This document shows, one piece after another, positions 2,379 through 46,923 of a stretch of DNA of 56,070 bases. How positions within the stretch are numbered: the first letter of the stretch is position 1; every line of letters begins with the position of its first letter. The stretch spans positions 1 to 56,070 of the IMG/VR virus record IMGVR_UViG_3300021197_001081; one strand, given 5' to 3'. The notes beneath the pieces are model-generated. The model made no database searches, was not told where the DNA came from, and saw only the letters and a program-made list of their open reading frames with translations. The position numbers and the translations under genes are program-made. This DNA comes from a virus (Duplodnaviria > Caudoviricetes).

Positions 2379-4810
2379 AAGACGTAAAGATACAAGTAAA
2401 TGCCTCTGCATTTCCAGACCAATTTGTTTCTGACTCTGTAAAAGACACAATGGAGTTTGGACTACAGGTTGGGCAAGCAATACAATACGAATGGTTTAGG
2501 AGAGACAGTGGATCTTGTAGGTTTTATTCACAATGGGGTGATTTTAACAGACTAAGACTTTATGCTCGAGGTGAACAATCAGTTGCTAAATATAAAAACG
2601 AATTAGCTATAGATGGTGATTTAAGTTATTTAAATTTAGACTGGACACCAGTTCCTATTATTCCTAAATTTGTTGACATTGTTGTTAATGGAATGAATGA
2701 TAGACTTTTTAAAATAAAAGCTGTTGCTCAAGATGCTTTGTCAGCAGAAAAAAGAAATGAATATCAAGAAATGATTGAGGGCGAAATGCTCGCTAAACCA
2801 TTACTACAACAAATAGAATCAGATTTTGGTGTAAATGTGTTTCAAACAAAAGAAGAAGATTTACCAGAAACAGACGCAGAGTTAGAACTTTTCATGCAAA
2901 TGAATTATAAGCCTGCTATTGAAATTGCAACAGAAGAAGCAATTGATACTTTATTTCAAGAAAGTCATTATAGTGACACGAGAAAAAGAGTTGACATGGA
3001 CATTACTACGTTAGGTATTGGAATGGCAAAGCATATATTTCTTCCAGGAGAAGGCGTAAGAGTTGAGTATGTTGATCCTGCAAATGTAGTTTACAGCTAT
3101 ACTGAAGATCCTTATTTTAAAGATACATTTTATTGGGGTGAAATAAAAACAGTTCCAATAACTGAATTAATAAAAATAGATCCTTCATTAACTAATGAAG
3201 ACTTAAAAGAAATTTCTAAATATAGTCAATCATGGTACGATTATTATAATTCACAGCAGTTTTATGAAAATAGTATGTTTCATAGAGACACAGCTACATT
3301 GTTGTATTTTAATTATAAAACTACTCACACTTTTGTTTATAAAAAGAAAAAAACTTCTAATGGAACTTATAAAGTTGTAGAAAAAGATGATCAATTTAAT
3401 CCCCCTCAAGAAATGATGGATGAGGGTGATTTTGAAAAAGTAACTAAAACTATTGATGTTTGGTATGACGGTGTAATGGTTATGGGAACTAACATAATGC
3501 TTCAATGGAAGTTGGGCGAAAACATGGTTAGACCAAAATCAGCAAGTCAATATGCTATGCCAAACTATGTGGCGTGTGCGCCAAAAATGTATAAAGGACA
3601 ATTGGAGTCTTTAGTTAAACGAATGATTCCATTTGCTGACTTAATTCAAGTAAGTCATTTAAAAATTCAGCAAGTTGTTTCAAGAGTTGTTCCAGATGGT
3701 GTTTTTATTGATGCTGATGGTTTAAATGAAGTTGATTTAGGAACAGGAAACGCATACAATCCAGAAGATGCTTTAAGACTTTACTTTCAAACAGGTAGTG
3801 TTATTGGTAGAAGTTATACTCAAGACGGAGAATATAATAATGCGAAAGTTCCAATCACTCAATTAACAGCTAATAGTGGGGCGAGTAAGATGCAAATGCT
3901 TATCGGTAACTATAATCATTACTTAGATATGATTAGGTCTGTAACAGGTTTAAATGAAGCTCGTGACGGATCAAGTCCAGATCCTAACTCTTTAGTTGGT
4001 GTTCAAAAATTAGCTGCATTAAATTCAAATGTAGCGACAAGACATATTTTAAATGCAAGTTTATATATAACAAAAACTTTAGCTGAATGTTTATCTATAA
4101 GAACAGCAGATGTTTTAGAGTATGCGGATTTTAAAGATGAGTTTGCTATGCAGATTGGTAAATATAATTTATCAATATTAGATGATATTAAAAACTTGTA
4201 TTTACATGACTTTGGAATATTTATAGATCTTATGCCTGATGAAGAACAAAAAGCTATGTTGGAGCAAAATATACAAATGGCTCTGTCTAAAGAGAATATA
4301 AGTTTAGAAGACGCAATAGATATTAGAGAGATTTCTAATATAAAAATGGCTAATCAATTGCTTAAGGTAAAAAGAAAGGCTAAACAAGATAGGGAACAGC
4401 AGCAGCAAATGCAACAACAGCAAATGCAAGCGCAAATGCAAATGCAAGCGCAACAAGCTCAAGCTCAGTTGGCAATGCAGACACAGCAGGCTGAAACACA
4501 ATCTAAGATGGCCTTGAAAGAAGCAGAGGTTAGTTTTGATATACAAAAATTGCAAAGAGAAGCAGAATTAAAACAACAATTAATGCAAGTTGAATTCGAA
4601 ATGCAAATGCAATTAAAAGGTTTGGAAGCTTCCAATTTACAAACGAGAGAATCTGAAAGGGAAAAAGCAAAAGATAACAGAATAAGTCAACAGTCTACTC
4701 AAACATCTAAAATGATTGAACAGAAAAAAAGAGATTTACCAGCTATAAACTTTGAGTCTAATGAAGATAGTTTAGATGGTTTTGATTTAGCTGAGTTTAA
4801 CCCAAGATAA
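2375..4810 (+). CDS. Portal protein
   Basis: 811 aa, follows terL with an ATAA/ATGA overlap. Contains PIIPKFVDIVVNG and a Gln-rich coiled-coil C-terminus like P22-type barrel portals. Confidence 0.85.
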   Translation: MKDVKIQVNASAFPDQFVSDSVKDTMEFGLQVGQAIQYEWFRRDSGSCRFYSQWGDFNRLRLYARGEQSVAKYKNELAIDGDLSYLNLDWTPVPIIPKFVDIVVNGMNDRLFKIKAVAQDALSAEKRNEYQEMIEGEMLAKPLLQQIESDFGVNVFQTKEEDLPETDAELELFMQMNYKPAIEIATEEAIDTLFQESHYSDTRKRVDMDITTLGIGMAKHIFLPGEGVRVEYVDPANVVYSYTEDPYFKDTFYWGEIKTVPITELIKIDPSLTNEDLKEISKYSQSWYDYYNSQQFYENSMFHRDTATLLYFNYKTTHTFVYKKKKTSNGTYKVVEKDDQFNPPQEMMDEGDFEKVTKTIDVWYDGVMVMGTNIMLQWKLGENMVRPKSASQYAMPNYVACAPKMYKGQLESLVKRMIPFADLIQVSHLKIQQVVSRVVPDGVFIDADGLNEVDLGTGNAYNPEDALRLYFQTGSVIGRSYTQDGEYNNAKVPITQLTANSGASKMQMLIGNYNHYLDMIRSVTGLNEARDGSSPDPNSLVGVQKLAALNSNVATRHILNASLYITKTLAECLSIRTADVLEYADFKDEFAMQIGKYNLSILDDIKNLYLHDFGIFIDLMPDEEQKAMLEQNIQMALSKENISLEDAIDIREISNIKMANQLLKVKRKAKQDREQQQQMQQQQMQAQMQMQAQQAQAQLAMQTQQAETQSKMALKEAEVSFDIQKLQREAELKQQLMQVEFEMQMQLKGLEASNLQTRESEREKAKDNRISQQSTQTSKMIEQKKRDLPAINFESNEDSLDGFDLAEFNPR

Positions 4811-5221: not shown

Positions 5222-6370
5222 ATGGAATTTAAAGTAAAAGCAGTAGACGGAAATGTCGAAGAAAAATCAAAAGCGCAAGTTGAAGAAGCTTTATTAAAAG
5301 AACACGCTGAACAATTTGAAGAACAAAATACAGAAAAACCTATCGATAAGATAGATTTGTCTGAAAAACAAAATTCACCTGTCGAAGAAAAATCGACTGA
5401 TGAAACTAAGATTGAAGAACAATCATTGCCTGAGTTAAAAGATGATGATATTCTTTCATATATTAAAACAAGATATAATAAAGACATATCTTCGGTAGAC
5501 GAACTATTTTCTGAAAAAGAACTAAATGAGGAACTACCTGAAGATGTTTCTAAGTATTTAAAGTATAAACAAGAAACTGGACGTGGTATTGATGACTTTT
5601 ATAAATTACAAAAAGACATTGATAACATGGAGGATGACACCATACTTGCTAATTATTATGAATCTACTGAAGACGGTTTAGACTCAGAAGATATTCAAGA
5701 TATTATTGCAGACAAATTTTCTTATGATGAAGATTTAGATGATGAAAAAGATATTAGAAAAATAAAATTAGCGAAAAAAAGAGAACTTTCTAAAGCAAAG
5801 AAATTTCTTAATGAACAGAAAGACAAATATAAAGTTCCTCTTGAGTCAAGTGGGGGCGGATTGTCCGAAGATCAGCAAGATGATTTAGATGCATATAAAA
5901 AGTATATAGAGGAATCTAAAAGTATTGAAGAAGTAAATAGGAAGAGATACAATTATTTCTTAGATAAAACCGAGTCGGTTTTTAACAACGAGTTCAAAGG
6001 TTTTGAATTTTCAGTTGGTGATAAAAATATTTCTTTTAAACCAGGTGACGCACAAGAGCTAAAAAATGTCCAATCTGACGTTAACAATTTCGTTAACAAA
6101 TTTATGGATAAAGATGGTTTAATTAACGATCCTGTAGGATATCATAAAGCCTTTTCGGTTGCTATGAATCCTGATAAATTTGCTAAACACTTTTATGACC
6201 AGGGTGTTGCCGCAGCTGTAGATAATGTTTCAAGAAAATCTAAAAACATAAATATGGATGTAAGACAACAATCTCAATCGGTTTCTAAAAACGGAATCAC
6301 GATTAGACCTATGAATGTAAGTAATGATAGTGGAAGAGGACTCAAAATTAAAAGTAGAAAAAATAATTAA
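5222..6370 (+). CDS. Probable capsid scaffolding protein
   Basis: 382 aa, strongly acidic and helical, located between portal and major capsid genes. Confidence 0.65.
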   Translation: MEFKVKAVDGNVEEKSKAQVEEALLKEHAEQFEEQNTEKPIDKIDLSEKQNSPVEEKSTDETKIEEQSLPELKDDDILSYIKTRYNKDISSVDELFSEKELNEELPEDVSKYLKYKQETGRGIDDFYKLQKDIDNMEDDTILANYYESTEDGLDSEDIQDIIADKFSYDEDLDDEKDIRKIKLAKKRELSKAKKFLNEQKDKYKVPLESSGGGLSEDQQDDLDAYKKYIEESKSIEEVNRKRYNYFLDKTESVFNNEFKGFEFSVGDKNISFKPGDAQELKNVQSDVNNFVNKFMDKDGLINDPVGYHKAFSVAMNPDKFAKHFYDQGVAAAVDNVSRKSKNINMDVRQQSQSVSKNGITIRPMNVSNDSGRGLKIKSRKNN

Positions 6371-6385
6371 TAAAAAAACAAAATT

Positions 6386-7861
6386 ATGGCAGTAAATGTA
6401 ACTCCAGGATTTGACTTGCAGCCAAGTGCGCAGCAAACTCCTTTATCAACAAACTACATAACTAACTTTGACTTCTTGAATCAGTATCTTCCTGATACTT
6501 ATGAAAAGGAATTTGAGCGTTATGGAAATAGAACAGTAGCTTCATTCTTAAGAATGGTAGGTGCTGAAATGCCTTCTAATTCTGACCTTATCAAATGGGC
6601 AGAACAAGGAAGATTACACACTAAATATCAAGCTTGTACATCTGCAGCAGCAGCAGGTGCTGATGATGGTGTTTGGACTATTCCAAATAACATTACTAAC
6701 TTTAACCCAGCTTTAGGTGGAACATCAAGTCAAGCAGCTTTAAGAGCTGGACAGACTGTAATGATCTCAGATAACACGCCAGGTTCAACTTTACAGAACA
6801 AAGGTATTATTACTGTAGCTCCAACAGCTGCTAATCCAAACCAAGTAACAATTGCTTATTATGAAGGAGGAGGTCAAGCAATGGATGGTGTAGCTGGTGC
6901 AGGAGCTGTACCTTGTGATATATTTGTATATGGTTCTGAATTTGCAAAAGGAGTAAACGGAATGCAAGGTTCTTTAGAATCTGATGATTTTATCTTCCAA
7001 AACAAACCAATCATTATCAAAGACAAATATTCTGTTTCTGGTTCTGACATGGCTCAAATTGGATGGGTAGAAGTTACATCTGAAAATGGTGCATCTGGAT
7101 ACTTATGGTATTTAAAATCTGAACACGATACAAGATTACGTTTTGAAGATTACTTAGAAACAGCAATGATTGAAGCAGTACCAGCAGCAGCAGGTTCTGG
7201 TGCAGGAGACTACTTACAAGGTACAGCGGCAGGAGCTTCTGTAGCAGGAGAGTCTGGATCTGAAGGAATTTTCTATGTAGTTGGACAAAGAGGTAATGTA
7301 TTTGGTGGAGGAAATCCAACAACTTTAGCTCAGTTTGACAACATTATTCAAAGACTTGACAAGCAAGGATCTATTGAAGAGAATGTTATTTTTGTAGATC
7401 GTCAGTTTTCATTTGACATTGATGACATGTTAGCAGTACAAAACTCTTACGGAGCAGGCGGTACTTCTTACGGTTTATTTGACAATGACAAAGACATGGC
7501 TTTAAACTTAGGTTTCACAGGATTCCGTAGAGGATATGACTTTTACAAGTCTGACTGGAAATACTTAAATGATCCTACAATGAGAGGTGGTCTTAATGCA
7601 GGTAAAGTCAATGGACTTTTAGTTCCAGCTGGATCTACAACTGTATACGATCAAATTTTAGGCAAGAACGCAAAGCGTCCTTTCTTACACGTTCGTTACA
7701 GAGCTTCAGAGACCGAAGACAGACGTTACAAATCTTGGATTACTGGTTCAGCTGGTGGAGCAAGAACAAGTGACTTAGATGCAATGGAAGTAAACTTCTT
7801 GAGTGAAAGAGCTGTATGTACTTTAGGTGCAAACAACTTCTTCCTATTTCAAGATTCATAG
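6386..7861 (+). CDS. Major capsid protein
   Basis: 491 aa, follows the scaffold, high-expression codon usage (TTC, TAC, AAC, GCA), strong terminator downstream. Motifs QYLPDTYEKEFERYGNR and GFRRGYDFYK. Confidence 0.85.
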   Translation: MAVNVTPGFDLQPSAQQTPLSTNYITNFDFLNQYLPDTYEKEFERYGNRTVASFLRMVGAEMPSNSDLIKWAEQGRLHTKYQACTSAAAAGADDGVWTIPNNITNFNPALGGTSSQAALRAGQTVMISDNTPGSTLQNKGIITVAPTAANPNQVTIAYYEGGGQAMDGVAGAGAVPCDIFVYGSEFAKGVNGMQGSLESDDFIFQNKPIIIKDKYSVSGSDMAQIGWVEVTSENGASGYLWYLKSEHDTRLRFEDYLETAMIEAVPAAAGSGAGDYLQGTAAGASVAGESGSEGIFYVVGQRGNVFGGGNPTTLAQFDNIIQRLDKQGSIEENVIFVDRQFSFDIDDMLAVQNSYGAGGTSYGLFDNDKDMALNLGFTGFRRGYDFYKSDWKYLNDPTMRGGLNAGKVNGLLVPAGSTTVYDQILGKNAKRPFLHVRYRASETEDRRYKSWITGSAGGARTSDLDAMEVNFLSERAVCTLGANNFFLFQDS

Positions 7862-19033: not shown

Positions 19034-21325
19034 ATGGCAGAAGATACTTCAAGACCATCAGGCGCAAATAAATATTCAATCTATGCTCAAAGAAGTGTAG
19101 ATAGTACTCAGGTAGATTACAACAAGGTTCAAAAAGACCTTGTTACTGGACTTAATCTTATACAAGCTGACAGAGAAACGCGTAAAGCAGCCATTGAAAA
19201 GTCTACTCAAGATGCTATAGAACAGCTTAGTAAAGTTCCAGAAACAGGAACTCAAGATGCAGCATCATTATTAATAAATGCTTCTGCAATGTCTATAAAA
19301 GAAATACAAACACAAAACAACTTAATGAAGCGTGGGCTATCAAGTGTCCAGGATAATATGTTGTTTATGCAGCAGCAAAAAAATGGATACGCAAGTTTAA
19401 GCACAGCTGTAAAAGGTTGGGATGATTGGGCTGTTGAAGCGAGGGAAAGACTTCAAGCTGCAAAAGACGGAGGTGCAACAGCTTCTGAGCTGGAAATATT
19501 TACAAACTTATCTGTTGAAGCTTTAGGTAATTTAAAAAATAAAAAATTATGGTCTAACCCTACTAACGGTAAAATGCAGTTAGTAACGATGGGTAAAAAT
19601 GAAAAAACAGGTTTATATGATGTAATGCCTGATTATGAAGCCAGAAAACAAGACTATCAAAATCCTAACCAGATAGTAAATTTCATGAAGTATCAACAAG
19701 ACAGGATTGATGTTGATGATTTAGCAACTGCTCAAACTGCTCAAATAGCAGACATTATACAGATAACACTGGATGGAGATGAGTATAAAAGACTTACAGG
19801 TGGTGGAAGACAAATAAGTACAGAAGACTTTAGAAACCTTGGAGACTTTGGTACAGATGAAAGTGGACAAAAAATAACATATAACATGTGGAAATCTACG
19901 CAGTTAGATGCTATGATTGGAGCGCCTGGAGATAAAAATAATATGAATGCGGCACAGGTTTTAACAAACTCTGGAAGATTTTTCTTTGCAGAAACAGAAA
20001 GTCAATTTAAAGAACAACATCCAGGGATATCTACTGATTATATGATTAAAGTAGATATGAGTTCAGGACAACCAGTACCTGAAATGACTGAATCTCAATA
20101 CGAAGATGCTCGTAGGCTTGCTGATATTGCTGTTGAATCACAAGTTAGTCATATAGAGAAAGTTGCAGAGACCTCTAAATCAGCACAAGCACCACAACAA
20201 GACACACCTGCAACAATAGCAAACAAGGAAAAAGATAGAGCTTTAGTTGGCTTTATGGATGATGCAAATGCTCTTGTGTCTGATGATGAATCAGCATTTA
20301 ACTCAACAGCACAAGATAGAATAGTAGCTTTAAATAAAGCAATGGCTGGTGGTGATCCAAATAAATTGATTGATAGTATAACTCGTAATGATGAGACAAT
20401 TACTATTACTTTAGCCGATGGAACACCAGAAGTAATAAGAAGAGTAGATGAAAATGGAATTGTAAGACCTACTGAGGATGTTGTTAAAGAAGTGTACAGA
20501 TATATTACACCTCAAACATCTGAATATGATAACTCATATAAAGACGCTAAAATATTATATGAAGCCGAACCAGGTGGTGGCTTTAGAGGTGCAGATAGAG
20601 ATATGACTGAAGTAGAATTGGTTGCGGCAGCAGCTGAAAATAAGGCAAAACAACAGTTAGAAGCAGAGGGTATTAAACCAACTTTAACTGATGTTAATGG
20701 CAGAGAAACTGGTGCTAATCCAGATTACGAAGAACAACTTGCAGCTAAAATTGTTGATTTAACTGATGGAATTACAGATGAGGAAAAAGCAGCAGTTAAG
20801 AAAAGAGTTTTAAAGAATATAACTGGGGAGAAATACAGAGCTTTAGCTCCTCTTCCATCTATCAAACAAAATACTGCTAAAATTGGAGTTCTTACAGAAG
20901 ACGGTACACCAAAACCAGTTACTGGTACAGAACTTATTGAAGATAAAATAGGTGGTAGATTAGATGGACTATCGACAATAGGTGGTGACGATTCAGTAGA
21001 AGTTAATGATGTTTTAAGTCAGGTTATGAATGATTACCTTCCAAGTGAAATAAAGGGTGGTGCTAAAGTTGTACTTAAAAAAGATGATGTTGATGATAGT
21101 AAATGGGTTGTTGAAGTTTCTTATTTTGACAGAGCTGGAAAACAACAATCACTTCCTCCAATATATCCAAATGTAGGTACTGTAATTGGTCTTGACGGTT
21201 CAACACCGTCTGAGTTAAACGAAATCATGCATGGAGCAGCACAAAAAGTTTTAGACGAAGAAAACGCAAGACTTACAACAAGAAATCTAAAAGGTACTGG
21301 TAAAAACCGAAAAAAGTTTAATTAA
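19034..21325 (+). CDS. Internal virion (ejection) protein 2
   Basis: 763 aa, helical, positional call. Confidence 0.55.
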   Translation: MAEDTSRPSGANKYSIYAQRSVDSTQVDYNKVQKDLVTGLNLIQADRETRKAAIEKSTQDAIEQLSKVPETGTQDAASLLINASAMSIKEIQTQNNLMKRGLSSVQDNMLFMQQQKNGYASLSTAVKGWDDWAVEARERLQAAKDGGATASELEIFTNLSVEALGNLKNKKLWSNPTNGKMQLVTMGKNEKTGLYDVMPDYEARKQDYQNPNQIVNFMKYQQDRIDVDDLATAQTAQIADIIQITLDGDEYKRLTGGGRQISTEDFRNLGDFGTDESGQKITYNMWKSTQLDAMIGAPGDKNNMNAAQVLTNSGRFFFAETESQFKEQHPGISTDYMIKVDMSSGQPVPEMTESQYEDARRLADIAVESQVSHIEKVAETSKSAQAPQQDTPATIANKEKDRALVGFMDDANALVSDDESAFNSTAQDRIVALNKAMAGGDPNKLIDSITRNDETITITLADGTPEVIRRVDENGIVRPTEDVVKEVYRYITPQTSEYDNSYKDAKILYEAEPGGGFRGADRDMTEVELVAAAAENKAKQQLEAEGIKPTLTDVNGRETGANPDYEEQLAAKIVDLTDGITDEEKAAVKKRVLKNITGEKYRALAPLPSIKQNTAKIGVLTEDGTPKPVTGTELIEDKIGGRLDGLSTIGGDDSVEVNDVLSQVMNDYLPSEIKGGAKVVLKKDDVDDSKWVVEVSYFDRAGKQQSLPPIYPNVGTVIGLDGSTPSELNEIMHGAAQKVLDEENARLTTRNLKGTGKNRKKFN

Positions 21326-24300
21326 TGGATAAATTTACAGAGTTATATAATTACTTAAAGGAAGAAGGATTAACAGATTTATCTGCAGAAGAATTCAAAG
21401 CTGAGTATGCAGCAGGTACTGCTAAAAATACTGAACTATATTCTTATTTAAAAGCTGAAAAATTAACAGATTTAGATGCGGAAAAATTTAATATAGAGTA
21501 TTTCCCTGGTGTTGAAAAAAAAAATCCAAACGACATTTCTCCTTCAAACACTCCAGAGGTTATTACGGACTCTACTACAGAAGCTCCAGAGGTCGTGGAT
21601 ACTTCTTCGGATACCACCACACTTGAAAAACCTTTAGGTGACAATACTGTAGTAGATGTACAGGAAGAAGACAATATGGTTACCGAATACCCTGCATACG
21701 ATCCTCGTGAGCAAGGTAAAGAAATAAATGCAAACCCAATTACATATAATTCCAGCGACTCTCAGTTTGACAAATCTTTGGCTTTTGTAACAGCTGATTT
21801 AATTGACAGAGAGGAAAGTGAAGTAGTCAACAGAATGAGATATCATTTTGAAGACTATGGTTTTGACTTTGAACAAGGTGGTGGCTTTATGAGTGGATTA
21901 GATGGAATGAAAGTTACATCTAAAGATGATCCCACTAAAAGCATAAACATTAATCTTGATCCTTTTTTTGGAGATATTTTTGGTGGTGAGTCAGGGCCTG
22001 CAAAAGAACTTAGAAAGTTTTTAAAAGAAAACAGAAGAACTGACCAGAGAATGCAAAGTCTGGATGCTTCGTATGATAAAAACAGAAAAAAATATTTTAG
22101 TGCAGAAGCAACTAAAGAAGATATTCAAGCTGTAAGAAATTCAGCTAAATCTTTAAATGAAGATTATAAAGTTTATCAAGACAGAAAAGCTATTCATGAA
22201 GCAGAAATGGAAGCATTAATGTCTCAAGGCAAGGATGTACAGAACACTCCTGAATGGAAGCTTAAATACCAACAAACTTTATTGGCAGGTAAAAGATTAA
22301 AACAATTTCAAAACAAACTTCAAAAAGACTATAGTAGTTACACACAATTTCAAAGTCAAGTAAATTCATCTGTTGGTAATTATATATCAATGAAAGAATC
22401 AGACGATAGTACATTTTTTGGCGGTTTAGTAAATGATTTTGTTGGCCCTGGTGTAAGTGAAGTTCTTGCGTCTGTTTGGGGTGCTGGTGTTGATGGGTTT
22501 TATAAAGTAGCTCAGTTTATTGACGAAGACTTTGGAATGACTGCTGAAGAAAAAAAAGATCGTTATATTGATATTGCAAAAGATCTTGGGTATCCAGTTC
22601 CTGAAAATATAGAAGACGATGCTGTTTACACAAAGTGGTTAGAAGGTTTGCAGGAGCAAGGGTTTGATGATGAAGAAGTAGAGTCAGAAAAAATAGGTGA
22701 ATTGTCAATTAATACGTTTCCTAAAGAAATAATGGAACGACTTGAAGCTGATGGTTTTGATTTAAGTAAGCCAACTTTAAATGGACAATACTTTAATAAA
22801 AATCAGTCAGGATTTAATAAATTTTTAAATGGACAATACATTGACCTTCCTGACTATGCTTATGATAAAACAAGAGGTGAGCGATTAAAAAGATTGGTAT
22901 TAGATCAAGAGGTAAAAGAAAATAAAAATCCACAAAAAGATTTAATAAAAAAATACTTTAACGAAATATTATCTGCAGATGATATCTCAGATGAAAAATA
23001 CGCTAAACAATCTAATAGCAATATTGTTTATACTGGACTTTCTGGTCTTGCTAAGTCTCTTCCATCTGTATTAGTTTCTTTTGCTTCAAGAGGAAAAATA
23101 GCTCCAGCTGTTGGAGTGGGAGCGGCAAAAAGAAATTTAGTTGCAAGAGGGTTAGGTCTAACAACAAAAGGAGGAATTGCCCAAACAATTTCATTTGCTA
23201 TGTTGCAAGCTGAAGCAATGAATGTTGAAATGAATAATGATCCTGATTTTAAGTATGTTACTGAGTCAGAAAGAAAAAACATAATTATTCCAACATCTAT
23301 TACAGTAGGTCTTTTAGAACGTTATGGTTTTAGAAATATAGCGTCAAACAAAGCTATAATGACTGGTTTAATGAACAGGGTAACTAATGCTTTACCTAAA
23401 GGAGCTACCGCGCAAATGTTCAAAAACAAGATGAATGATGTTATTCAAAGCAATATTGCTCGTGGCATTTTTTCAAACAAAGCTGTAAAAGCTGCTACAA
23501 CTTTTACTGGTCGAGTTACTAAAGCTGCTTTGGCAGAAGCAGAAACAGGTGGTCTTCAGCAAATAGCTGAGATGGGCTACAAAGATGTGTGGAACAACAT
23601 GAATAATAAAGACATGTTTGAACAGCCTGAATTATGGACTAAAGAGTTTTGGGGAACTGTTGGGCATGCTGCAGCTGCTGAAGCTGTAGGTGGTTTTGTG
23701 ATGGGTGTTCCTGGGGCAGTAATTGCGGCAGCTAAAAACAAAACAGAAGACTTGCTTTCTGATGATCTTGTTGACATGTTTGACATGATAAGAAATGATG
23801 AAATAACTGTAGAAGCTTATCAAGCACAATTAGATTTATCAGTTGCTAATGGTACAATAACAGCTGAAAAAGCAGCACAAGATTTATTAGATTTTAACAC
23901 ATTAAGTGGAGCTGCTAATACTTTACCAAGCGACTTAGATGTTAACTCAAGAAAAAAAGGATTATTATTGATTTTTGAGCAGCAGCAATTAGAAGCTGAA
24001 ATGGAAAAATTAAATAAGAATTTAAATTCTTATAAAACCAAAGAAGCCAGAGTTGAAGAAATAAAAAACGAAATTGGACAGCTTGGAACTAATCAAGCTC
24101 AAGCAAATACCAATTTAAGAAATGAGACTGAAGGAATTCAAGATTCTGTTTTAGTTACAGAAGAAGATGCCACAAAATCTTTACAAGATAAGGGGGTGCA
24201 AAACCCTACAGTTGAACAAATTAAAGCCGAACAAGATGCCTTACAAAAGCAAAGCACAACGAGCCTGGATGCACAAGAATCTTCCAGAAGTAGCGAAGAG

Positions 24301-27300
24301 GTGGGACAAAGCGTACCCAACAGCCAGTCTACCCAACAGAGCGAAACCGAAGACAAAGCTCAAGACAAGAAGAAGACCGAAGAGAAAGTAAGTAAAGACG
24401 ATCAAAATGACATTGATGATTTCTTTGGTGATGAAGTTTTAGATGACGTTGAAACCTCTTCAGATAATTTATCTATAAATAGAAAACAAGTAGAGGGAGA
24501 TACAGAAATAGAGAATACAACTTTAGCAGCAGCTGTAGTAAATAAAGCTAAAAAAGCTGCACGAGCAATTGCTAAAATAGCACCTGAAGTGAAGATAGTT
24601 TTGCACGACACTCAAGCAGAATACGAAAAGTACGCAACCAAGGGTAGTCGTGGGTATTACAATCCAAACAGTAAAGTTGTACATATTAATTTAACTAAGG
24701 CTAAAGGAAACACAGTAGCTCACGAAGTTTTTCATGCGGTATTTTTAGATAAAATATCAGGGGGTGATGTTCAAGCTCAACAAGCAGCTTTAAAACTGAT
24801 AACCTCTGTAAGAAAAACCTTACCAGCTGAATCATTGTTAGCTAAAAGAATAGATAATTTTGCTAAAAATTATGATGAAAATATTAAAAATGAAGAGAAG
24901 TTAGCAGAGTTATTCTCTTTGATGGCCACTGAATATAAAACATTAAAGAAGCCAGGGAAGAATAAAGTTATAGAATTTATAAGATCAATGGCGGCTAAAT
25001 TAGGCGTTAAAATCCCTGGTGGTTTTGGTAAAACAGACGAGTCAGTTATAGATTTTATGAATGCATTTTCTAAAAAAGTTAGAACTGGTACTGAAATAAC
25101 AGAAGGTGATGTAGATGTTTTAAATAAAATAAATGAAATGCAGGGCGGTGAAAACATTACCAATCCTGCAAATGCATTTAGAGAACAAAGGGTAGGAGGC
25201 TTTGATATTAAATATACCGAAAACGAAAAAATATCACAGTATATAAAAGATGGAAGAATTACTGAGCCAAAAAACCTTGAAAAATTTAGAGGAAATAAAA
25301 CTGCAATTACTTCACCTGATGACATGGTGGTTGGTGAAATATCTTTTAATGGTGAAAAAATATTTGAAGGACAAGGAGGTTTATTTTTTGTAACTAAGTT
25401 TGGAGATGTATGGGCTGCTGGAGATAAAACGACAGCAACTAAATTAGCAGACATGATTAATAGAAGTGTTGATGCTAATGGCGGAAAAGGATATCTTACT
25501 TTGACGAAAGGGACAGATAAAAAATTGATTAGTAGTGCCGCTGGAGTTAATTCAAGTCTTGGGGTAATTGATGTTTTGCTTAATCAAAATATTTTACCTA
25601 AATCAGTTGTAAGAACTGCTGTTAAAAAAGTTATAAGCGATTTCGGTGGTGGTAATATAGATTTAACTGGAACATCAAAACAAATGGTTTCACAGTTAAG
25701 AGATTTTTTTGGAGATAAAAAGAATGCCACTTTTGAAGCTCGTGGAACTGTAATGGAAAGAATAATTGCAGAGATAGGTATGGATAAAAGACTTGGAGAT
25801 TTAAAAAAGAAGAACTCTAAGTTAACTAAAATTTTAGGAGGTGATTCATCTAAAACTTTGGTGGGTGGTAAGACAAGTAGAACAGCAAATAGTTTAGTAG
25901 ACTTAGTTGCTTCATTAGCCGCAGAACAAATCACCAAAGGATTAAATACTGGAGATATTTATGGAGTGATTGAAGTGGATGGTAAAGTTGAATATTATCC
26001 AGGCACTCATCCAAGTTACCCTGCACATATAAGACAGGTTAACAAAAAACCTCCTACGCTGCACTTACCTAAAAACAGACCTGCTGCAAGGGATTACTTG
26101 ATGAGAGATAGTAATAAAATTTATAAAACTCCAGCTGTTAGTCCAACAGAATATGGATCATTTTATGAGTTAGATTCTAAAGTAGAAAGTTCTACTGAAT
26201 CAAAGACTGAGAAAAGACAAGGTAGAGAACAGTCTACTGAACAGCAAGTAAAAGATCAAACTGGAATGCCAGCAAGTGGCTTCTATAGCGCTCAAGCTAT
26301 GGTATCTGATATCCAACGCCAGTTTAATAGAATTGGTCCAGGATATGTGGCTAAAAGAGCCAAGCAAGGCGCTTATGGAGGCGGTGGCGGCGTATATGTC
26401 ATTGGCCCTAATAAGCGTATTGTAAAAAATCCTACACGAAAAGGACGTCAACAGGCAATGGATAATGAAAACGATTTGCTTAGAATTATAATAGCTGGCC
26501 GAGAAGAAGGAGGTTTTGAAGATGCAGCTATAAAAGATTATTTAAAGAGAAGAAAAAGAAAGGTTGATGGTAAAACAGCAAGTGCTTATAGTGCGAAAGA
26601 AATTAATGCTGCATTCAAAGTTTTAGAAAGCGAAGCTTTTGATTCTTACATGTTTAGAGAATACCCTACAAGTTTTAATGACATAAAAGGTGGTTTTCTG
26701 GCTGGTCTTAAATTAATGAAAGATGTTGATACTTACTATAAAAAATTAGTTGAAAAGAATAATTTAATTAAAGACAGAGTTGCAAAAAACAGGAAGACAA
26801 AACAAGTACCACTGACTGACGAACAAATTAATTTAAAAGTTTTAGATTACTTTATGTCGCTCCCTGGATACAAAAGCGTAGGGGTAAAAGGTAAAAGACA
26901 GACATCTCAACAGCTTGCTATGGAACGTGATATGTTAAACATACTGCTTCCTGATCCATTAAAGGCTAATCCTAAACGTATTGCAGCAATAAACAGAAGG
27001 ATAAAAAACATAAAGTTTACTGAAAGAAACCTTAAAGGTGTTCAGAGAGCTTTAAGAAATTACATAAGAACCGTACTACCAAGAGATTTATATACTAAAA
27101 AAGAAATAACTGATTTAATTGATAAGGTGAATAGAGTAAACGCTACAAACTTTGAATCAGTTAAAGATGAGGTTTTTAAAATAGTTACTACAAAAACAAA
27201 CAAAAGACTTGAGAGTGTTTTATTTAAGATGCTCGACAAAGGGTATACCACTATTCAAAGTGGTAGATTTAAAGGTGTAAAAATTGATAATGAAACTCGT

Positions 27301-30243
27301 AAAAAGTTAAATCGTATCAATAAATTAGTAGTGAACCCTAAGTCAACTGGAGATCAAATAATGGAAGCCAATGAAAAACTTTTAAAATTATATAATAAAG
27401 TTTCTACAGAAGAGGTGGTAGACGAAAAAGATAAAAAAAGTCGTAAGACTAAATCTACATTTAGTAAAAGTGATTTACAGCAGATGGCTGAAATTACATT
27501 AGCTATGCAGATAAACACATCTTTTACTCAAGAAATGAATGACTCTAATAAAACTACTCAGTTAAGCTCAGTAATCAATAGCTTAAAACAAATAGAAGAG
27601 TCTGGGAAAGCTAATTTTGAGTACGAATTACTACAAGACGCTATACAATACAGAGAGAATGAGAGAGCTGTATACAAGGATATGACAGGTATAGATATTG
27701 ATGCAAAACAATCACTTATTGACCAAGGTATACCTGAGAATGAAATTACTGAGTTTATGGTAAACGAAGAGTTTCAAAAAATTAAAAAAGATATTTCACT
27801 TGATGCTAAAGAATCAGGTGGCTTGAAAGTAGAAGGTGTTATAAAAAGATTTAAAGGTTCACTAAATAGTTTAGCCGCTAAAATTGAGCAAGGGTTATTT
27901 GGAAGTGCAGAAGATATGACAGGTTTGATAGATAGAATATCTACACAACCAGGGGAAATATTTGAAGGTGCAACTCAAGAGCTGACGCAGAAAAAAATAC
28001 GTTCTTCTTCAAGAGTTTATAAGTCAAGAATGATTGGACAGCAATTAAGTCTTTCTAATAAAATGACAGAATTATTTGGTGAGAAATGGGTTAAAATAAA
28101 CAGAAAAAACTCTCAGATGACTGAATCTATTGTTCGCAGTAAGGTCAAAGATGATTTACTACAAGGACAATTAAAAGAAGCTCAAGAAAATAAAACTCTG
28201 AAGAAAGGAGAACGAACAGCTTTAATTAATTCAATACAAAAGGAGATTGATCAAAACACAGTAAACTTAAGTCAAAACCAATTGCTTTATTATTACTCAC
28301 AGATGCAAGATCCTTCTTTAGAGGGGAGTATGATAAACACTTTTAATCCCACAAGAAAGGGGAATATAGTGTTTGATAATGAATTTAAGAGCAGAATAGA
28401 GCAAGAGATAAGCGATAAATTAGATGACAGATTAAAAGACCTGTCTGAGTGGATGATAAAAGATTATTATCCAACTTCTTATGACCACTACAATAATACT
28501 TACAAGAAGATTTACAGGACTGATATGCCTTGGAATCAAAACTATGCTGGTCGTGTGTATCGTCAAAACGAAAACGACATGGAGGCCTTAGATTTATTAG
28601 CCGACAGTCAATCATGGATTACAAACGTTGGTTCTGCAAGTACTAAAGTAAGAGTTCAAAACACAAACCCAATTGAAAAAGTAGATGGTATAGATGCATT
28701 ACTTAATTATACTAAGGATATGGAGTATTTTGCTGCATATGGTGTGGCTATAAGAGATATTAATAAAATATTTTCATCACCAATGATCAAAGAAACCATT
28801 AAAGAAAAATTTGGTTCTACTATTTACACATATATTGATGATTCTATAAAAAAAATAGCAAACAAGGGAATACAATCACAAAGACAAATACAAATAATAA
28901 ATACTTTTAATAATACATTTTTATTATCTCGTTTAGGTTTAAACCCAACACTTATATTAAAACAAATGACATCTTTCATCACTTATGGAAATGACATTGG
29001 TTATTTGAATTGGGTTAAAAATGCCGCTATGAGTACGACTCAAGCAAAAAAATTAGTAAACGAAGTTTTAGACAACTCAATTGTCCTACAAGACAGGTAT
29101 GGACAAACAATTAAAAGAGCTGTAGAAACATATGCTGATGAAAAGTTTGAAAAAATGAACGGTGGTTTATTAGAGCGTTTTGGATTGACAAACGCAAAAC
29201 AAGACAAGATTAGTAAAATTTTAATGTGGACCACAATGACAGGGGATAAAGGCGCTATACTTGTTGGTGGTGTTCCAAATTACTTATACTATAAAAATGA
29301 ATTTAAAAAGAAAAACCCTGAAGCATCAGAACAAGAGGTTATTGATCATGCAATAAAAAAGTTTGAAGCTGATACATTAAGAACTCAGCAGTCATCTGAT
29401 TTACAAGATAAAGATTACTTTCAAACTAAAGGGGCGCTTATAAGAGCCTTTAACATGTTCTTGACAACTCCAAAACAATATTTCCGTAGAGAAATTATTG
29501 CAGCAAGAAACATGTATAGAATTGTTAAAAGTGGTGGTAAGCAGGGTAAAGGGGTTATAAAAGATAATGGAGAATTAGATTACTGGAGAAGTTTAGGTAA
29601 ATCTGCAAGAAGTTTAGCAGTGTATCATGTGGTGATGCCAGTGGTATTCCAGTGGGTATCTGCTGGATTGCCAGGACTTTTAAGAGGGATGAATGAGGAG
29701 GACGAAAAAGATTTAGGAATAGCCGCTCTTTTAGGTAATTTAAATGCTTTGTTTATTATAGGAAAAGTAGCTGAGACTCTTAAAGATGTTGCGTTAGGCA
29801 AGCCTTGGGCAAAAACTCCATCAACAATTCCAATTTTAGGACAAACATCACAGCTGGCAGATTTATACATGCGTGCGCAAAAATCAAAAGGTGTAAAGAG
29901 AGAAGAAGCTATGAATAAATTTATGGCAGAAGCAATTGCTCTTACAGGTATACCAGCCCCACAATTAAGGAAGTTTATGAAAAACTTTTCTGAAATTGGT
30001 GACTCAAAATCTGCAGGGGAGTTTATCTTAAAACTTTTTAATTTTTCTGAATATCAGCAAAGAGGAGGTAAGAAAGGTAAAGGTTTTAAATTAACAAAAA
30101 CTGAACTAAAAGAATATTTCCCAGAACTATACCCAGAAACTGAAGAAGACGGTCCACTGGAAGATTATCTTAAATTACAGAAAGAAGCTAAAGCAGAACA
30201 AAAACGTTTAAGAAAAGAACTCCTTGATCAAATGTATAAATAA
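21325..30243 (+). CDS. Giant internal virion / large polyvalent protein with a zincin-like HEXXH domain
   Basis: 2972 aa. RGYYNPNSKVVHINL...AHEVFHAVFL at 24721-24735 with downstream EEKLAELF; helical C-terminal region. No DxDxD RNA polymerase motif seen. Confidence 0.7.
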   Translation: MDKFTELYNYLKEEGLTDLSAEEFKAEYAAGTAKNTELYSYLKAEKLTDLDAEKFNIEYFPGVEKKNPNDISPSNTPEVITDSTTEAPEVVDTSSDTTTLEKPLGDNTVVDVQEEDNMVTEYPAYDPREQGKEINANPITYNSSDSQFDKSLAFVTADLIDREESEVVNRMRYHFEDYGFDFEQGGGFMSGLDGMKVTSKDDPTKSININLDPFFGDIFGGESGPAKELRKFLKENRRTDQRMQSLDASYDKNRKKYFSAEATKEDIQAVRNSAKSLNEDYKVYQDRKAIHEAEMEALMSQGKDVQNTPEWKLKYQQTLLAGKRLKQFQNKLQKDYSSYTQFQSQVNSSVGNYISMKESDDSTFFGGLVNDFVGPGVSEVLASVWGAGVDGFYKVAQFIDEDFGMTAEEKKDRYIDIAKDLGYPVPENIEDDAVYTKWLEGLQEQGFDDEEVESEKIGELSINTFPKEIMERLEADGFDLSKPTLNGQYFNKNQSGFNKFLNGQYIDLPDYAYDKTRGERLKRLVLDQEVKENKNPQKDLIKKYFNEILSADDISDEKYAKQSNSNIVYTGLSGLAKSLPSVLVSFASRGKIAPAVGVGAAKRNLVARGLGLTTKGGIAQTISFAMLQAEAMNVEMNNDPDFKYVTESERKNIIIPTSITVGLLERYGFRNIASNKAIMTGLMNRVTNALPKGATAQMFKNKMNDVIQSNIARGIFSNKAVKAATTFTGRVTKAALAEAETGGLQQIAEMGYKDVWNNMNNKDMFEQPELWTKEFWGTVGHAAAAEAVGGFVMGVPGAVIAAAKNKTEDLLSDDLVDMFDMIRNDEITVEAYQAQLDLSVANGTITAEKAAQDLLDFNTLSGAANTLPSDLDVNSRKKGLLLIFEQQQLEAEMEKLNKNLNSYKTKEARVEEIKNEIGQLGTNQAQANTNLRNETEGIQDSVLVTEEDATKSLQDKGVQNPTVEQIKAEQDALQKQSTTSLDAQESSRSSEEVGQSVPNSQSTQQSETEDKAQDKKKTEEKVSKDDQNDIDDFFGDEVLDDVETSSDNLSINRKQVEGDTEIENTTLAAAVVNKAKKAARAIAKIAPEVKIVLHDTQAEYEKYATKGSRGYYNPNSKVVHINLTKAKGNTVAHEVFHAVFLDKISGGDVQAQQAALKLITSVRKTLPAESLLAKRIDNFAKNYDENIKNEEKLAELFSLMATEYKTLKKPGKNKVIEFIRSMAAKLGVKIPGGFGKTDESVIDFMNAFSKKVRTGTEITEGDVDVLNKINEMQGGENITNPANAFREQRVGGFDIKYTENEKISQYIKDGRITEPKNLEKFRGNKTAITSPDDMVVGEISFNGEKIFEGQGGLFFVTKFGDVWAAGDKTTATKLADMINRSVDANGGKGYLTLTKGTDKKLISSAAGVNSSLGVIDVLLNQNILPKSVVRTAVKKVISDFGGGNIDLTGTSKQMVSQLRDFFGDKKNATFEARGTVMERIIAEIGMDKRLGDLKKKNSKLTKILGGDSSKTLVGGKTSRTANSLVDLVASLAAEQITKGLNTGDIYGVIEVDGKVEYYPGTHPSYPAHIRQVNKKPPTLHLPKNRPAARDYLMRDSNKIYKTPAVSPTEYGSFYELDSKVESSTESKTEKRQGREQSTEQQVKDQTGMPASGFYSAQAMVSDIQRQFNRIGPGYVAKRAKQGAYGGGGGVYVIGPNKRIVKNPTRKGRQQAMDNENDLLRIIIAGREEGGFEDAAIKDYLKRRKRKVDGKTASAYSAKEINAAFKVLESEAFDSYMFREYPTSFNDIKGGFLAGLKLMKDVDTYYKKLVEKNNLIKDRVAKNRKTKQVPLTDEQINLKVLDYFMSLPGYKSVGVKGKRQTSQQLAMERDMLNILLPDPLKANPKRIAAINRRIKNIKFTERNLKGVQRALRNYIRTVLPRDLYTKKEITDLIDKVNRVNATNFESVKDEVFKIVTTKTNKRLESVLFKMLDKGYTTIQSGRFKGVKIDNETRKKLNRINKLVVNPKSTGDQIMEANEKLLKLYNKVSTEEVVDEKDKKSRKTKSTFSKSDLQQMAEITLAMQINTSFTQEMNDSNKTTQLSSVINSLKQIEESGKANFEYELLQDAIQYRENERAVYKDMTGIDIDAKQSLIDQGIPENEITEFMVNEEFQKIKKDISLDAKESGGLKVEGVIKRFKGSLNSLAAKIEQGLFGSAEDMTGLIDRISTQPGEIFEGATQELTQKKIRSSSRVYKSRMIGQQLSLSNKMTELFGEKWVKINRKNSQMTESIVRSKVKDDLLQGQLKEAQENKTLKKGERTALINSIQKEIDQNTVNLSQNQLLYYYSQMQDPSLEGSMINTFNPTRKGNIVFDNEFKSRIEQEISDKLDDRLKDLSEWMIKDYYPTSYDHYNNTYKKIYRTDMPWNQNYAGRVYRQNENDMEALDLLADSQSWITNVGSASTKVRVQNTNPIEKVDGIDALLNYTKDMEYFAAYGVAIRDINKIFSSPMIKETIKEKFGSTIYTYIDDSIKKIANKGIQSQRQIQIINTFNNTFLLSRLGLNPTLILKQMTSFITYGNDIGYLNWVKNAAMSTTQAKKLVNEVLDNSIVLQDRYGQTIKRAVETYADEKFEKMNGGLLERFGLTNAKQDKISKILMWTTMTGDKGAILVGGVPNYLYYKNEFKKKNPEASEQEVIDHAIKKFEADTLRTQQSSDLQDKDYFQTKGALIRAFNMFLTTPKQYFRREIIAARNMYRIVKSGGKQGKGVIKDNGELDYWRSLGKSARSLAVYHVVMPVVFQWVSAGLPGLLRGMNEEDEKDLGIAALLGNLNALFIIGKVAETLKDVALGKPWAKTPSTIPILGQTSQLADLYMRAQKSKGVKREEAMNKFMAEAIALTGIPAPQLRKFMKNFSEIGDSKSAGEFILKLFNFSEYQQRGGKKGKGFKLTKTELKEYFPELYPETEEDGPLEDYLKLQKEAKAEQKRLRKELLDQMYK
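24236..24391 (+). CDS. Overprinted basic microprotein (51 aa) in the +1 frame of the giant gene
   Basis: MPYKSKAQRAWMHKNLPEVAKRWDKAYP... resembles stand-alone phage microproteins of the MP(F/Y)KSKAQRxWM...AKRW type (recognised from memory). Confidence 0.6.
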   Translation: MPYKSKAQRAWMHKNLPEVAKRWDKAYPTASLPNRAKPKTKLKTRRRPKRK

Positions 30244-45306: not shown

Positions 45307-46923
45307 ATGAGCAATTATATTCCAAAGAACCTTGAGTTCGATCAGCCTGGTCGAAATAAATTAATAAAAGGGATTACAAAAATTTCTAAAGCAGTAAAGA
45401 GTACGTTAGGCCCACGCGGAAAAACAGTTCTAATAGAATCGCCTGAACATATCGGAGGTATGACAATAACAAAAGACGGTGTAACTGTAGCTAACTCTAT
45501 TTTTTTGGATGATCCTGTAGAGAACCTTGCGGTTCAAATGTTAAAAGATGCAGCACGTAGAACTGCTAACTCAGCTGGAGATGGAACGACTACAGCAATT
45601 GTATTAACCGAGGCTATTATAAAAGCTGGTGAAAGACTTCTAACAGAAAAAAATAATATAACTGAGGTTGTAAAATCAATAAACAGATTCAGTAAAATTA
45701 TTCTTAAAAAATTAAAAAAGAACTCACGAAAAATTACCAAGGCAAGGCTATTAGATGTTGCAACAATTTCAGCAAACAACGATAAGTCTTTAGGAAAAAT
45801 AATTGCTGATGCTTATAATAAAGTTGGAAAGAACGGTATTGTAACTGTAGAGCGATCTCAAAACCATGAGACATATGCCACAGTTACTAATGGAATAAAA
45901 GTTGATAGAGGTTATACTTCTAATTTATTTATCACTAATCAAAAAAACGATGAAGCAATCTTAGAAGATGTTTTAGTTTTAGTTTGTGACCAGGAGATAA
46001 GTAATATTCTACAAATAGAAAATGTTTTAAAACCAATCATTCAACAAAATAAAAAACTTCTCATCATTGGTCCATGCTCAGTCAATGTTGTGAATACCCT
46101 GGCGGCAAACGTAGTGCGTAACGGACTTAAGCTTTGTAATATTATACCACCACAATTTGGATATAAACAACACGAGCTTATGCAGGACATTGCGTTGTCG
46201 GTAGGGGCTAAATACTTTTCAGAAAAAACTGGAGATGATTTAAGTCTGTTAAGCATGGAAGATCTTGGTCATGCTGATAAAATTATTTCAGGAAAGAGTC
46301 AAACGGTTATCATTAAAAATAATCAAATGACTGAAGAGATAGAAAAAAGAATAACTGATCTTAAGGAACAACAAGAAAACACAGAAATAGTTTCAGATAA
46401 AGAGTTTATAAACGAGCGTATTGCAAGTTTATCAGGATCAATAGGAGCTATTTATGTTGGGGGTAATTCTGATATAGAGCAAAAAGAAAAGTATGACAGA
46501 GTAGAAGATGCTGTGTGTGCTGTTCGTAGCGCTTTGCAAGAGGGTATTGTAAGAGGTGGAGGACTTGCTTTATTTTATTCAAGAGAAGAACTTAGTTATA
46601 TTTCTAAGAAGACAGTTAATGATGACGAAAGTACAGCTATAGATATTCTAATGGAATCTTTATGTGCGCCATTAAGACAAATATTACAAAACGCTGGATT
46701 AAATCTTGATGAATACTACAATGTATCTACAACAAGTGATTCATGGATTCTTCAACAATTAGACGAGTACAATGTAAAGACTGAAGTAAAAGGAGATTTT
46801 TTTAAGATGGGTGTTATAGATCCTTTAAAAGTAACTAAGACTGCTTTTGAAAATTCAGTTAGTGTAGCAACAACTATTCTAACAACAAACGCAATAATAA
46901 CTCACGCGCGAGTAAAAGAATAA
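45307..46923 (+). CDS. groEL: Phage-encoded chaperonin GroEL (Cpn60)
   Basis: TLGPRG, ITKDGVTVA, AGDGTTTA, DRVEDAVCA and GVIDPLKVT motifs; no GGM tail. Confidence 0.97.
   Translation: MSNYIPKNLEFDQPGRNKLIKGITKISKAVKSTLGPRGKTVLIESPEHIGGMTITKDGVTVANSIFLDDPVENLAVQMLKDAARRTANSAGDGTTTAIVLTEAIIKAGERLLTEKNNITEVVKSINRFSKIILKKLKKNSRKITKARLLDVATISANNDKSLGKIIADAYNKVGKNGIVTVERSQNHETYATVTNGIKVDRGYTSNLFITNQKNDEAILEDVLVLVCDQEISNILQIENVLKPIIQQNKKLLIIGPCSVNVVNTLAANVVRNGLKLCNIIPPQFGYKQHELMQDIALSVGAKYFSEKTGDDLSLLSMEDLGHADKIISGKSQTVIIKNNQMTEEIEKRITDLKEQQENTEIVSDKEFINERIASLSGSIGAIYVGGNSDIEQKEKYDRVEDAVCAVRSALQEGIVRGGGLALFYSREELSYISKKTVNDDESTAIDILMESLCAPLRQILQNAGLNLDEYYNVSTTSDSWILQQLDEYNVKTEVKGDFFKMGVIDPLKVTKTAFENSVSVATTILTTNAIITHARVKE

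Follow-up and report, generated by a model that had tools for sequence, protein, structure and literature searches.

Background

Classical examples of overprinted viral genes come from phiX174 and MS2, and the concept of polyvalent proteins, giant phage proteins delivered with the virion, was reportedly put forward by Iyer et al. in 2017. In the case of the Rz/Rz1 spanins, 528 systems were divided into 182 embedded, 228 overlapped and 118 separated ones (Kongari et al. 2018, PMC6139136), and the excerpted text of that survey reports no family combining the embedded with another architecture. According to the excerpted text of a review on overprinting, the usual case is an ancestral frame over which a second frame without homologues is born de novo, and +1 is the commonest register for internal overlaps (Pavesi 2021, PMC8227390). 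Here we describe a small gene at positions 24236-24391 (+ strand) of a 56,070-nucleotide (nt) stretch of phage DNA (Duplodnaviria; Caudoviricetes; positions 1 to 56,070 of IMG/VR record IMGVR_UViG_3300021197_001081), the whole of which is referred to as the window. It lies in the +1 frame of the gene for a giant protein and belongs to a family whose other members are usually encoded by free-standing genes. Homology and the pattern of substitutions make it very probable that this is a real gene under selection. The explanation that we favour overall, and hold with good confidence, is a genuine nested gene with dual coding, which would be expressed and would act as proposed below.

Results and discussion

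The nested open reading frame

A first-pass annotation of the window, made from the sequence alone, had described a microprotein gene overprinted inside a 2972-residue virion gene. Its coordinates and translation are exactly as claimed. The open reading frame (ORF) at 24236-24391 (+) specifies 51 residues followed by a TAA stop (MPYKSKAQRAWMHKNLPEVAKRWDKAYPTASLPNRAKPKTKLKTRRRPKRK) and lies wholly within a larger gene of the same strand, the 2972-codon giant ORF at 21325-30243, in another frame (offset +1; (24236-21325) mod 3 = 1), as in an embedded gene pair. The +1 frame is open from 24155 and a further ATG is found upstream at 24167. The product is very basic, with 18 Lys or Arg residues, 2 Asp or Glu and no Cys, and by its translation and a profile of stand-alone homologues it is assigned to an MP[YF]KSxxQ family (see below). 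Read in the giant frame (24235-24390, +; giant residues 971-1022), the same DNA encodes an acidic polar linker, DALQKQSTTSLDAQESSRSSEEVGQSVPNSQSTQQSETEDKAQDKKKTEEKV, which begins DALQKQSTTSLDAQESSRSSEEVGQS. Residues 979-1045 of the giant protein have a predicted local distance difference test score (pLDDT) below 50 in an AlphaFold2 model built from 14 sequences, so this segment is mostly predicted to be disordered. The distance from the nested stop to the HEVFH (HExxH) motif of the giant protein (24721-24735, +) is exactly 330 nt, which had been given as about 330.

The segment is a compositional island. Its GC content is 0.474 compared with 0.336 for the whole giant gene, and 29 of 2921 sub-windows are equally high. 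The abundance of C- or G-ending giant-frame codons that the first-pass annotation had remarked on is seen in the GC content at third codon positions (GC3), which is 0.50 over the segment vs 0.214 for the whole gene (8 of 2920 sub-windows equally high).

A family of small basic phage proteins

When phage records were searched with the peptide using tblastn, the matches began at the first residues of annotated stand-alone small genes, namely FlowerPower gp48 (72 aa) with six relatives and URG13095 (39 aa) of the marine phage 023Pt_psg01. The same search gave an unannotated homologous ORF in phage C75C1. This C75C1 copy (L003:2998-3105) has 35 codons from a TTG, or 34 from the next ATG, and has an annotated small gene on either side. 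Scanning viral contigs with the peptide as seed yielded 58 loci, of which 32 are nested and 26 lie outside any long ORF. The nested copies are all contained in stop-to-stop ORFs of 1155-3082 aa and have the +1 offset every time. Free-standing copies in AT-rich contigs typically abut the stop of the preceding gene, several of them having Shine-Dalgarno (SD)-like leaders.

A hidden Markov model (HMM) made from 27 free-standing members only was applied to 1194 six-frame pieces of the window together with one further locus (L074, see below), and it recovered the nested ORF with an E-value of 6.7e-20 (68 bits). This was its sole match in the window, the next best piece having E=3.1, and the window genome contains exactly one copy of the family. 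The likeness to the small-gene cluster at 47.7-52.2 kb, also proposed in the first-pass annotation, is therefore not homology.

The profile search against 1.84 billion cluster representatives was far more sensitive than a word-index protein search, which found only 2 homologues. It gave 4211 matches at E<=1e-3 and 182 at E<=1e-10. Among the 149 matches listed, which leave out a near-identical 51-aa cluster (P0004), 112 are 100 aa or shorter and almost always carry the domain at the extreme N-terminus, and 37 are longer than 100 aa. One long protein, P0008 (1050 aa), has eight 'HPEIAAQWD...'-like repeat units that match profile positions 14-41 (E=2.7e-16). As its similarity is probably at motif level only, the total of 4211 includes non-members, and some of the weaker matches are surely spurious. 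In two others, P0113 (319 aa) and P0144 (495 aa), the small-protein domain is N-terminal and fused in frame to a HELGH-containing region; hhalign of the HExxH region of the window's giant protein against the HELGH fusion protein returned a probability of 7.5%.

The nested ORF carries the family features M1-P2-[YF]3-K4-S5...Q8, a W/F-D/N-K motif in helix 2, an LPxR segment and a basic tail. All 39 aligned members share M1, P2, S5 and Q8, although this invariance is inflated since the viral-scan loci were seeded partly by exact MPYKSKAQ. Family lengths are about 35-80 aa, most members having 40-80 aa. The first-pass annotation had likened the peptide to stand-alone phage proteins of the MP(F/Y)KS...AKRW type, and tblastn, viral scan and profile search each found such free-standing homologues.

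No existing family model accounts for these proteins. The peptide, its 74-aa extension and 10 further members had no Pfam match at E<=10, PF11450 included, and Pfam, PHROG and NCBIfam scans of the peptide and members returned no family and sub-threshold rows only (e.g. phrog_1375, E 0.016-0.29). No match was found by tblastn of a subtype-2 member against phage records. An AlphaFold2 model based on the 39-member alignment consists of two helices (residues 6-15 and 17-26) and an extended basic tail, with a mean pLDDT of 83. Foldseek with this model retrieved nothing from the PDB and only uncharacterised family members from BFVD, and a PDB sequence search with the family profile also retrieved nothing. 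In the ESM Atlas feature search, the nearest named cluster was DUF3008 (score 0.85), 37% of whose members carry the family; we treat this as a lead only. The literature search, which left most subscription journals and all supplements outside, gave no description of the family or of its nesting. Homology thus shows the product to be one of a large, uncatalogued group of small basic phage proteins, most of which have free-standing genes.

Selection on the small frame

Codon-position variation was analyzed in 15 unique nested sequences from 21 loci, which align without indels. At positions 1, 2 and 3 of the small frame, 18, 21 and 39 of the 51 sites are variable, with entropies of 0.26, 0.29 and 0.64, respectively. 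The first position of the giant frame is the third of the small frame. When the flanks were divided into 17-codon windows, giant position 3 was the most variable in nearly all of them (entropy about 0.5-1.1); inside 24236-24391 its entropy drops to 0.08-0.55 and giant position 1 is now the most variable. Synonymous variation of the giant frame thus collapses exactly over the ORF, a reduction that the first-pass annotation had named as a mark of a real gene. In 105 non-independent pairs, 1561 differences leave the small protein unchanged and alter the giant one, compared with 467 that do the reverse. The nested copies have diverged by 10-25% in nucleotides and have kept the ATG, the frame and the protein, and giant proteins only 25-37% identical to that of the window carry small proteins that are 84-92% identical. 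The position-3 pattern shows that the accumulated divergence was filtered by the small frame, and purifying selection over these 153 nt acts mainly on that frame.

Dual coding

The giant frame is also kept open. It contains no stop in any of the 32 nested copies, whereas the equivalent frame has at least one stop (1-12 each) in 32 of the 37 free-standing copies and, in contigs with GC below 0.45, in 21 of 22. Base composition differs in the same way. In 12 copies separated from the giant gene (mean GC of the loci 0.355), the small gene has GC 0.39, GC3 0.35 and a fraction of T at third positions (T3) of 0.205; the values for 23 nested copies (mean GC of the loci 0.344) are 0.48, 0.61 and 0.057. 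Since a third-position T of the small frame followed by AA, AG or GA makes a stop in the giant frame, the T3/GC3 skew is the signature of two frames held open. The comparison shows what we read as true dual coding, in which the giant frame is maintained at the cost of a strongly skewed codon choice in the small gene. Both frames of this embedded pair thus bear marks of selection, the small one in the shifted variation and the giant one in its lack of stops and in the T3/GC3 skew. One free-standing-looking copy (L054:6001-6126) is covered by a 277-codon ORF (5934-6767) in the giant-gene register.

Nested, downstream and missing copies

The census comprised 80 loci that were fetched by patterns of the HExxH region only, and copies were called with the stand-alone HMM at E<=1e-3. 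At 33 loci the small gene is nested at +1, at 12 it is separate and downstream, and 35 have no copy. The nested copies are mostly 109-135 aa, and up to 380 aa, upstream of HExxH. The 12 separate copies (L090, L104, L110, L113, L114, L116, L118, L120, L135, L138, L143 and L151) start 1-12 nt past the stop of the giant gene, as calculated from coordinates, and the frame left open by nested copies is interrupted in them by 2-9 stops. Of the copy-less loci, 13 of 35 are uninformative because they end within or just after the giant ORF.

Twelve loci found through the giant segment beside the ORF coincide, contig by contig, with nested loci of the peptide scan, and the ORF is kept in 12/12. The conservation of the ATG and of an open +1 frame in close orthologues, which the first-pass annotation had proposed as a check, therefore holds there as it does in the 33 nested copies of the giant-seeded census. 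The cultured Elemovirus, Flavobacterium phage vB_FspP_elemoE_6-9C, has a nested 42-aa copy at +1 (L074:6180-6308; E=4e-9), which is unannotated and sits in a 3694-aa 'structural protein' gene. Matches to this peptide were obtained in 69 records, 68 of Flavobacterium phages and one of an uncultured phage. Among these, the 30 listed, which include genomes of cultured Flavobacterium phages, have under the match only the giant gene or a similar giant-gene annotation, in agreement with the expectation that annotators would miss the small gene.

Nine further loci (L044, L047-049, L051, L059, L063, L064 and L066) have nested +1 copies in ORFs of 1174-2735 aa that show no tblastn similarity to the window's giant at 1e-5, and all but L044 lack HExxH. 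At L048 (5847-12119) the host is a 2091-aa ORF with a subtype-2 nested copy at residues 52-97 and, directly after it, a ddrB-ParB domain (PF18763, E=2e-22) at residues 164-290.

The HExxH region was also used for a quick maximum-likelihood tree (79 rows, 68 of them distinct), which is unrooted and in which trust is limited by long branches and by the quick method. The window falls there in an all-nested clade of 16 rows (support 97). Both halves of the tree, as divided at its midpoint, contain nested copies, and the three states (nested, downstream and absent) must have changed at least 11 times.

The term overprinted, as used in the first-pass annotation for a frame born de novo in an older gene, does not fit these data, as the small frame is spread far more widely than the giant one and is a separate gene in sister phages. 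De novo overprinting was rejected on account of the numerous free-standing homologues and of giant homologues without a nested copy. Because the nested frame is the more widely distributed, the phylogenetic criterion points to the small frame as the older reading of these 153 nt and to the giant linker as the derived one. On the unrooted tree, the small gene may have moved in either direction, in or out.

One possible history, to which we give less than even chances and which we regard as rather unlikely, is that a pre-existing, widespread small gene moved repeatedly between a site abutting the giant gene and the interior of its disordered linker, as a partner of giant or polyvalent proteins. 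Relocation would always have been into the one register able to stay stop-free, and it would be selected if the small protein were an obligate partner, such as a co-packaged DNA-binding cofactor or an activator of the HExxH domain. If this is true, the overprinted reading is that of the giant linker, nested copies in BLAST-unrelated giant ORFs are independent captures, and the small gene is a general, so far unannotated module of giant phage proteins.

Presumed translation start

The presumed translation-initiation region of the nested gene (24211-24235, +) is A-rich and has no SD sequence. Its A fraction is 0.55, compared with a mean of 0.56 for 46 gene starts of the window and 0.36 genome-wide, and an SD-like 4-mer is found at only 2 of the 46 starts. 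From -30 to +30, the predicted minimum free energy is -2.2 kcal/mol vs -7.39 on average for internal windows, 6.4% of which are equally weak; the gene starts average -3.55. Every nested copy has the ATG, and some relatives have their small frame closed 4 codons before it. Given that the gene is real, ribosomes would probably initiate independently at the nested ATG, on the mRNA of the giant gene, because the ATG is always kept and the leader is A-rich and weakly folded like the other starts of this phage. A GGGGG run 41 nt upstream was considered as an SD sequence and rejected: it is too distant, the phage makes no use of SD pairing and the run encodes a conserved giant-frame motif.

Among close relatives, the approximately 110 nt before the nested ATG (24121-24235) vary little at all three codon positions (entropies 0.06-0.20 vs 0.5-1.0 at giant position 3 elsewhere). 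When distant relatives were added, giant position 3 was again the most variable. This stretch encodes a conserved giant-frame motif (..TEEDA..SL..G[VI].NPT.EQIK.EQ), and it might also carry expression signals for the nested gene.

The phage and the giant host gene

The window is a phage record that CheckV rates as 88% complete. PHROG matches include the terminase large subunit (129-2375), the portal (2375-4807), several virion structural proteins and a GroEL-like chaperonin. The best named relative of the last of these (45307-46920; phrog_5725, E=4e-133) comes from an uncultured freshwater-spring phage, in whose record the small gene is likewise present in nested form. The host gene of the nested ORF (21325-30243, +; from the ORF list) comes after the terminase, portal and structural genes, and its 2972-aa product is a presumed virion protein. 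It matched no Pfam or PHROG family, the models of polyvalent-protein peptidases included. Its relatives in named phages are confined to the Flavobacterium Elemovirus 3694-aa protein annotated 'structural protein' (68 records) and two Tenacibaculum phage records, with about 30% identity over residues 1087-1608. No match was found when 23000-26000 was compared with phage records by blastn.

The H, E and H of HEVFH are nearly invariant in 14 relatives. The AlphaFold2 domain of the HExxH region has a pLDDT of 62-79, and its best Foldseek row has an E-value of 0.77, the only rows being weak ones to selecase and collagenase. No row was significant, and a metallopeptidase fold is not confirmed by Pfam, PHROG or Foldseek.

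The A-rich, SD-poor leaders fit a Bacteroidota host, a range weakly supported by nested copies on contigs binned to a Polaribacter metagenome-assembled genome (MAG) and to a Sphingobacteriaceae MAG. The host of this phage is probably a member of the Flavobacteriia.

Proposed role of the small protein

The neighbours of the stand-alone copies point mostly to the head and to packaging. Copies adjoin a major head protein (L050), virion structural proteins (L060), a portal (L065 and 023Pt_psg01) or a head-closure gene (C75C1), and at L039, L043 and L071 they lie directly upstream of TerL or of a TerS-like gene and TerL. We propose that the 51-aa protein, a two-helix N-terminal hairpin with a tail of Lys, Arg and Pro, would bind nucleic acid and would work with the giant protein during assembly of the head, packaging or ejection. 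The giant-frame segment would serve only as a disordered acidic linker before the HExxH region, and nesting or abutting would keep the two genes co-inherited and co-expressed. Because of the basic composition, the head and packaging neighbours and the position within or abutting the giant gene, a capsid- or packaging-associated, nucleic-acid-binding partner of the giant protein is our tentative assignment, which may well be wrong. That the two products would act together is suggested by a single pointer, the linkage of their genes, whether nested or abutting. The complex predicted for the small protein with a 603-aa HExxH region of the giant scored 0.00 in a run without controls, which speaks neither for nor against binding.

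Evidence against and alternative explanations

Several results weigh against the reading of 24236-24391 as a working gene or against the role proposed for it. In the codon-shuffled giant gene, the longest ATG-initiated +1 ORF had at least 51 codons in 1106 of 2000 shuffles and at least 74 codons in 181 of 2000. When the giant protein was held fixed and synonymous codons were shuffled, the +1 frame stayed open here in 446 of 2000. Since shuffles reach the same length so often, ORF length was dropped as evidence: length or an open frame alone is no evidence for a gene, and what goes beyond chance here is the homology and the substitution pattern. In the closest comparisons (L016 and L025), the few differences alter the small tail more than the giant frame, and exchange of this segment between phages could account for part of the difference in identity between the small and the giant proteins. 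Of 22 loci with at least 489 nt of downstream cover, 21 have no copy and L111 has a shortened one. The L111 copy (3146-3259; 36 aa, without the SKAQ segment, E=0.0098 with the full-family HMM) may be decaying or a variant. Among these copy-less relatives, those with records 95-100% complete (7/7) were negative throughout the record at E<=0.01, in a search that recovered three positive controls. The gene is thus, on these genome comparisons, dispensable in some lineages.

Positions 23200-25400 are present in contigs of four RNA-labelled marine libraries of one study (X1-X4). X1 and X2 each have one identical spanning contig; X3 and X4 have several pieces, and in X4 one bin is uncovered and one piece has 4 differing letters. 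As these contigs may derive from DNA or from the window's own source, they show no transcription, starts or levels. The support for the gene is comparative and its translation is deduced from sequence. As to the role, two stand-alone copies have other neighbours, namely a DNA polymerase gene (L068) and a DNA methyltransferase gene (L054), and the structure and family searches with the small protein gave no match pointing to a function.

Three other accounts of the ORF itself were compared with the nested-gene reading. It could be an untranslated by-product that is open by accident, conservation applying instead to a giant-frame motif ([DN]A[LV]Q[KE]QS...VGQ) or to an element of the nucleic acid; the motif does recur over the first codons in unrelated giant ORFs, and open frames of this length are common by chance. 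However, bases that encode MPYKSKAQ give the motif automatically when read in the giant frame, variation is concentrated at small-frame third positions, which are giant first positions, and the family exists free-standing with the giant-equivalent frame stopped in 32/37 copies. An HMM made of free-standing copies alone finds the nested ORF at E=6.7e-20. We consider the by-product account very improbable. Hardly better placed is a recent passenger, i.e. a gene inserted into or engulfed by the giant linker that is intact and no longer expressed or needed. The GC island (0.474 vs 0.336), the lability of the arrangement (at least 11 changes on the giant-protein tree) and the lack of the gene in some complete relatives would agree with it, but nested copies are found on both sides of the tree midpoint and in giant ORFs without BLAST similarity, and they have kept ATG, frame and protein through 10-25% nucleotide divergence. 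The GC skew itself is explained by dual-coding codons, because the separated copies of sister phages are not GC-rich. There is likewise only a slight chance that the ORF is part of a recoded product, either by a start at the nested ATG followed by a -1 shift, giving the small domain joined to the C-terminal ~1950 aa, or by a +1 shift from the giant frame, giving a truncated N-terminal fragment with a basic tail. In-frame fusions to longer proteins are known in the family (37 of the 149 listed matches exceed 100 aa, two of them with a C-terminal HELGH region), and in several relatives the nested stop comes right after an AGGAGG-like run. Yet that stop is kept in all nested copies, most members have 40-80 aa, no slippery heptamer was seen on reading the sequence, the small frame of some relatives is closed 4 codons upstream of the ATG and genes of this phage do without SD pairing.

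The remaining alternative concerns function only and leaves the nested gene in place. The small protein could regulate the giant HExxH domain in trans, as an inhibitor, an activator or a partner resembling a pro-peptide, and this HExxH-linked role is the main functional rival to the head-protein role, though an unlikely one. It would agree with the location of the gene 109-135 aa upstream of HExxH in most nested relatives, with the lineage in which the domain is fused to a HELGH-containing region and with FlowerPower gp48, which comes after a gene annotated 'peptidase'. On the other hand, nested copies also occur in giant ORFs without HExxH, one of which has a ddrB-ParB domain, and HExxH is present in only 2 of the 37 listed long family members. 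The low hhalign probability (7.5%) between the giant HExxH region and the fusion protein also stands against it, as does the giant's domain itself, for whose peptidase fold Pfam, PHROG and Foldseek gave no significant match.

Comparison with known systems

If the family is as large as the profile search suggests, up to 4211 cluster representatives have been hidden from the Pfam, PHROG and NCBIfam models, and pipelines that forbid nested genes on the same strand will go on missing it. Its tight linkage to giant virion proteins, whose assembly and delivery are poorly understood, is a lead to an accessory factor of these proteins.

Among named families, DUF3008 (PF11450), which comprises uncharacterised small proteins of phages and actinobacteria, resembles the small protein in being small, basic and viral, with the Atlas neighbour score of 0.85 as a lead only; it differs in that 12 scanned members of our family have no PF11450 match at E<=10. 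The literature search, with most subscription journals outside it, found no paper mentioning DUF3008 or PF11450. The host genes recall polyvalent proteins, being giant and made of multiple regions, with an HExxH motif in the window's giant and at L048 a ddrB-ParB domain (PF18763), which we take to have been defined in the context of polyvalent proteins. The window's giant departs from them in having no Pfam or PHROG match. Within the same limits of the literature search, no nested small gene was found described in polyvalent or giant phage proteins.

The Rz/Rz1 pair is similar in that a small same-strand gene lies inside a larger one at +1, that the pair is separated in other phages and that, as far as the excerpted survey goes, embedded copies are usually left unannotated by gene callers. 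The 51-aa product is not an outer-membrane spanin, having no cysteine (thus no lipobox) and no hydrophobic N-terminal segment. Unlike Rz1, the nested gene belongs to the virion module and not to a lysis cassette, and its host encodes a virion protein of about 3000 aa. In addition, one family is here both embedded and separated beside homologous host genes, which the excerpted text of the spanin survey does not report for any family.

With classical overprinting, as far as the excerpted account describes it, the locus shares a same-strand internal +1 overlap in which one product is disordered. It differs in that the nested frame is not lineage-restricted and has thousands of free-standing relatives. 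As the same gene is nested in some phages and free-standing in their sisters, the cost of the overlap, in codon skew and avoidance of stops, and the route of its origin become directly measurable, unlike in most overlaps. An embedded phage gene is a known architecture, and the small-protein family and its giant host gene are what is new.

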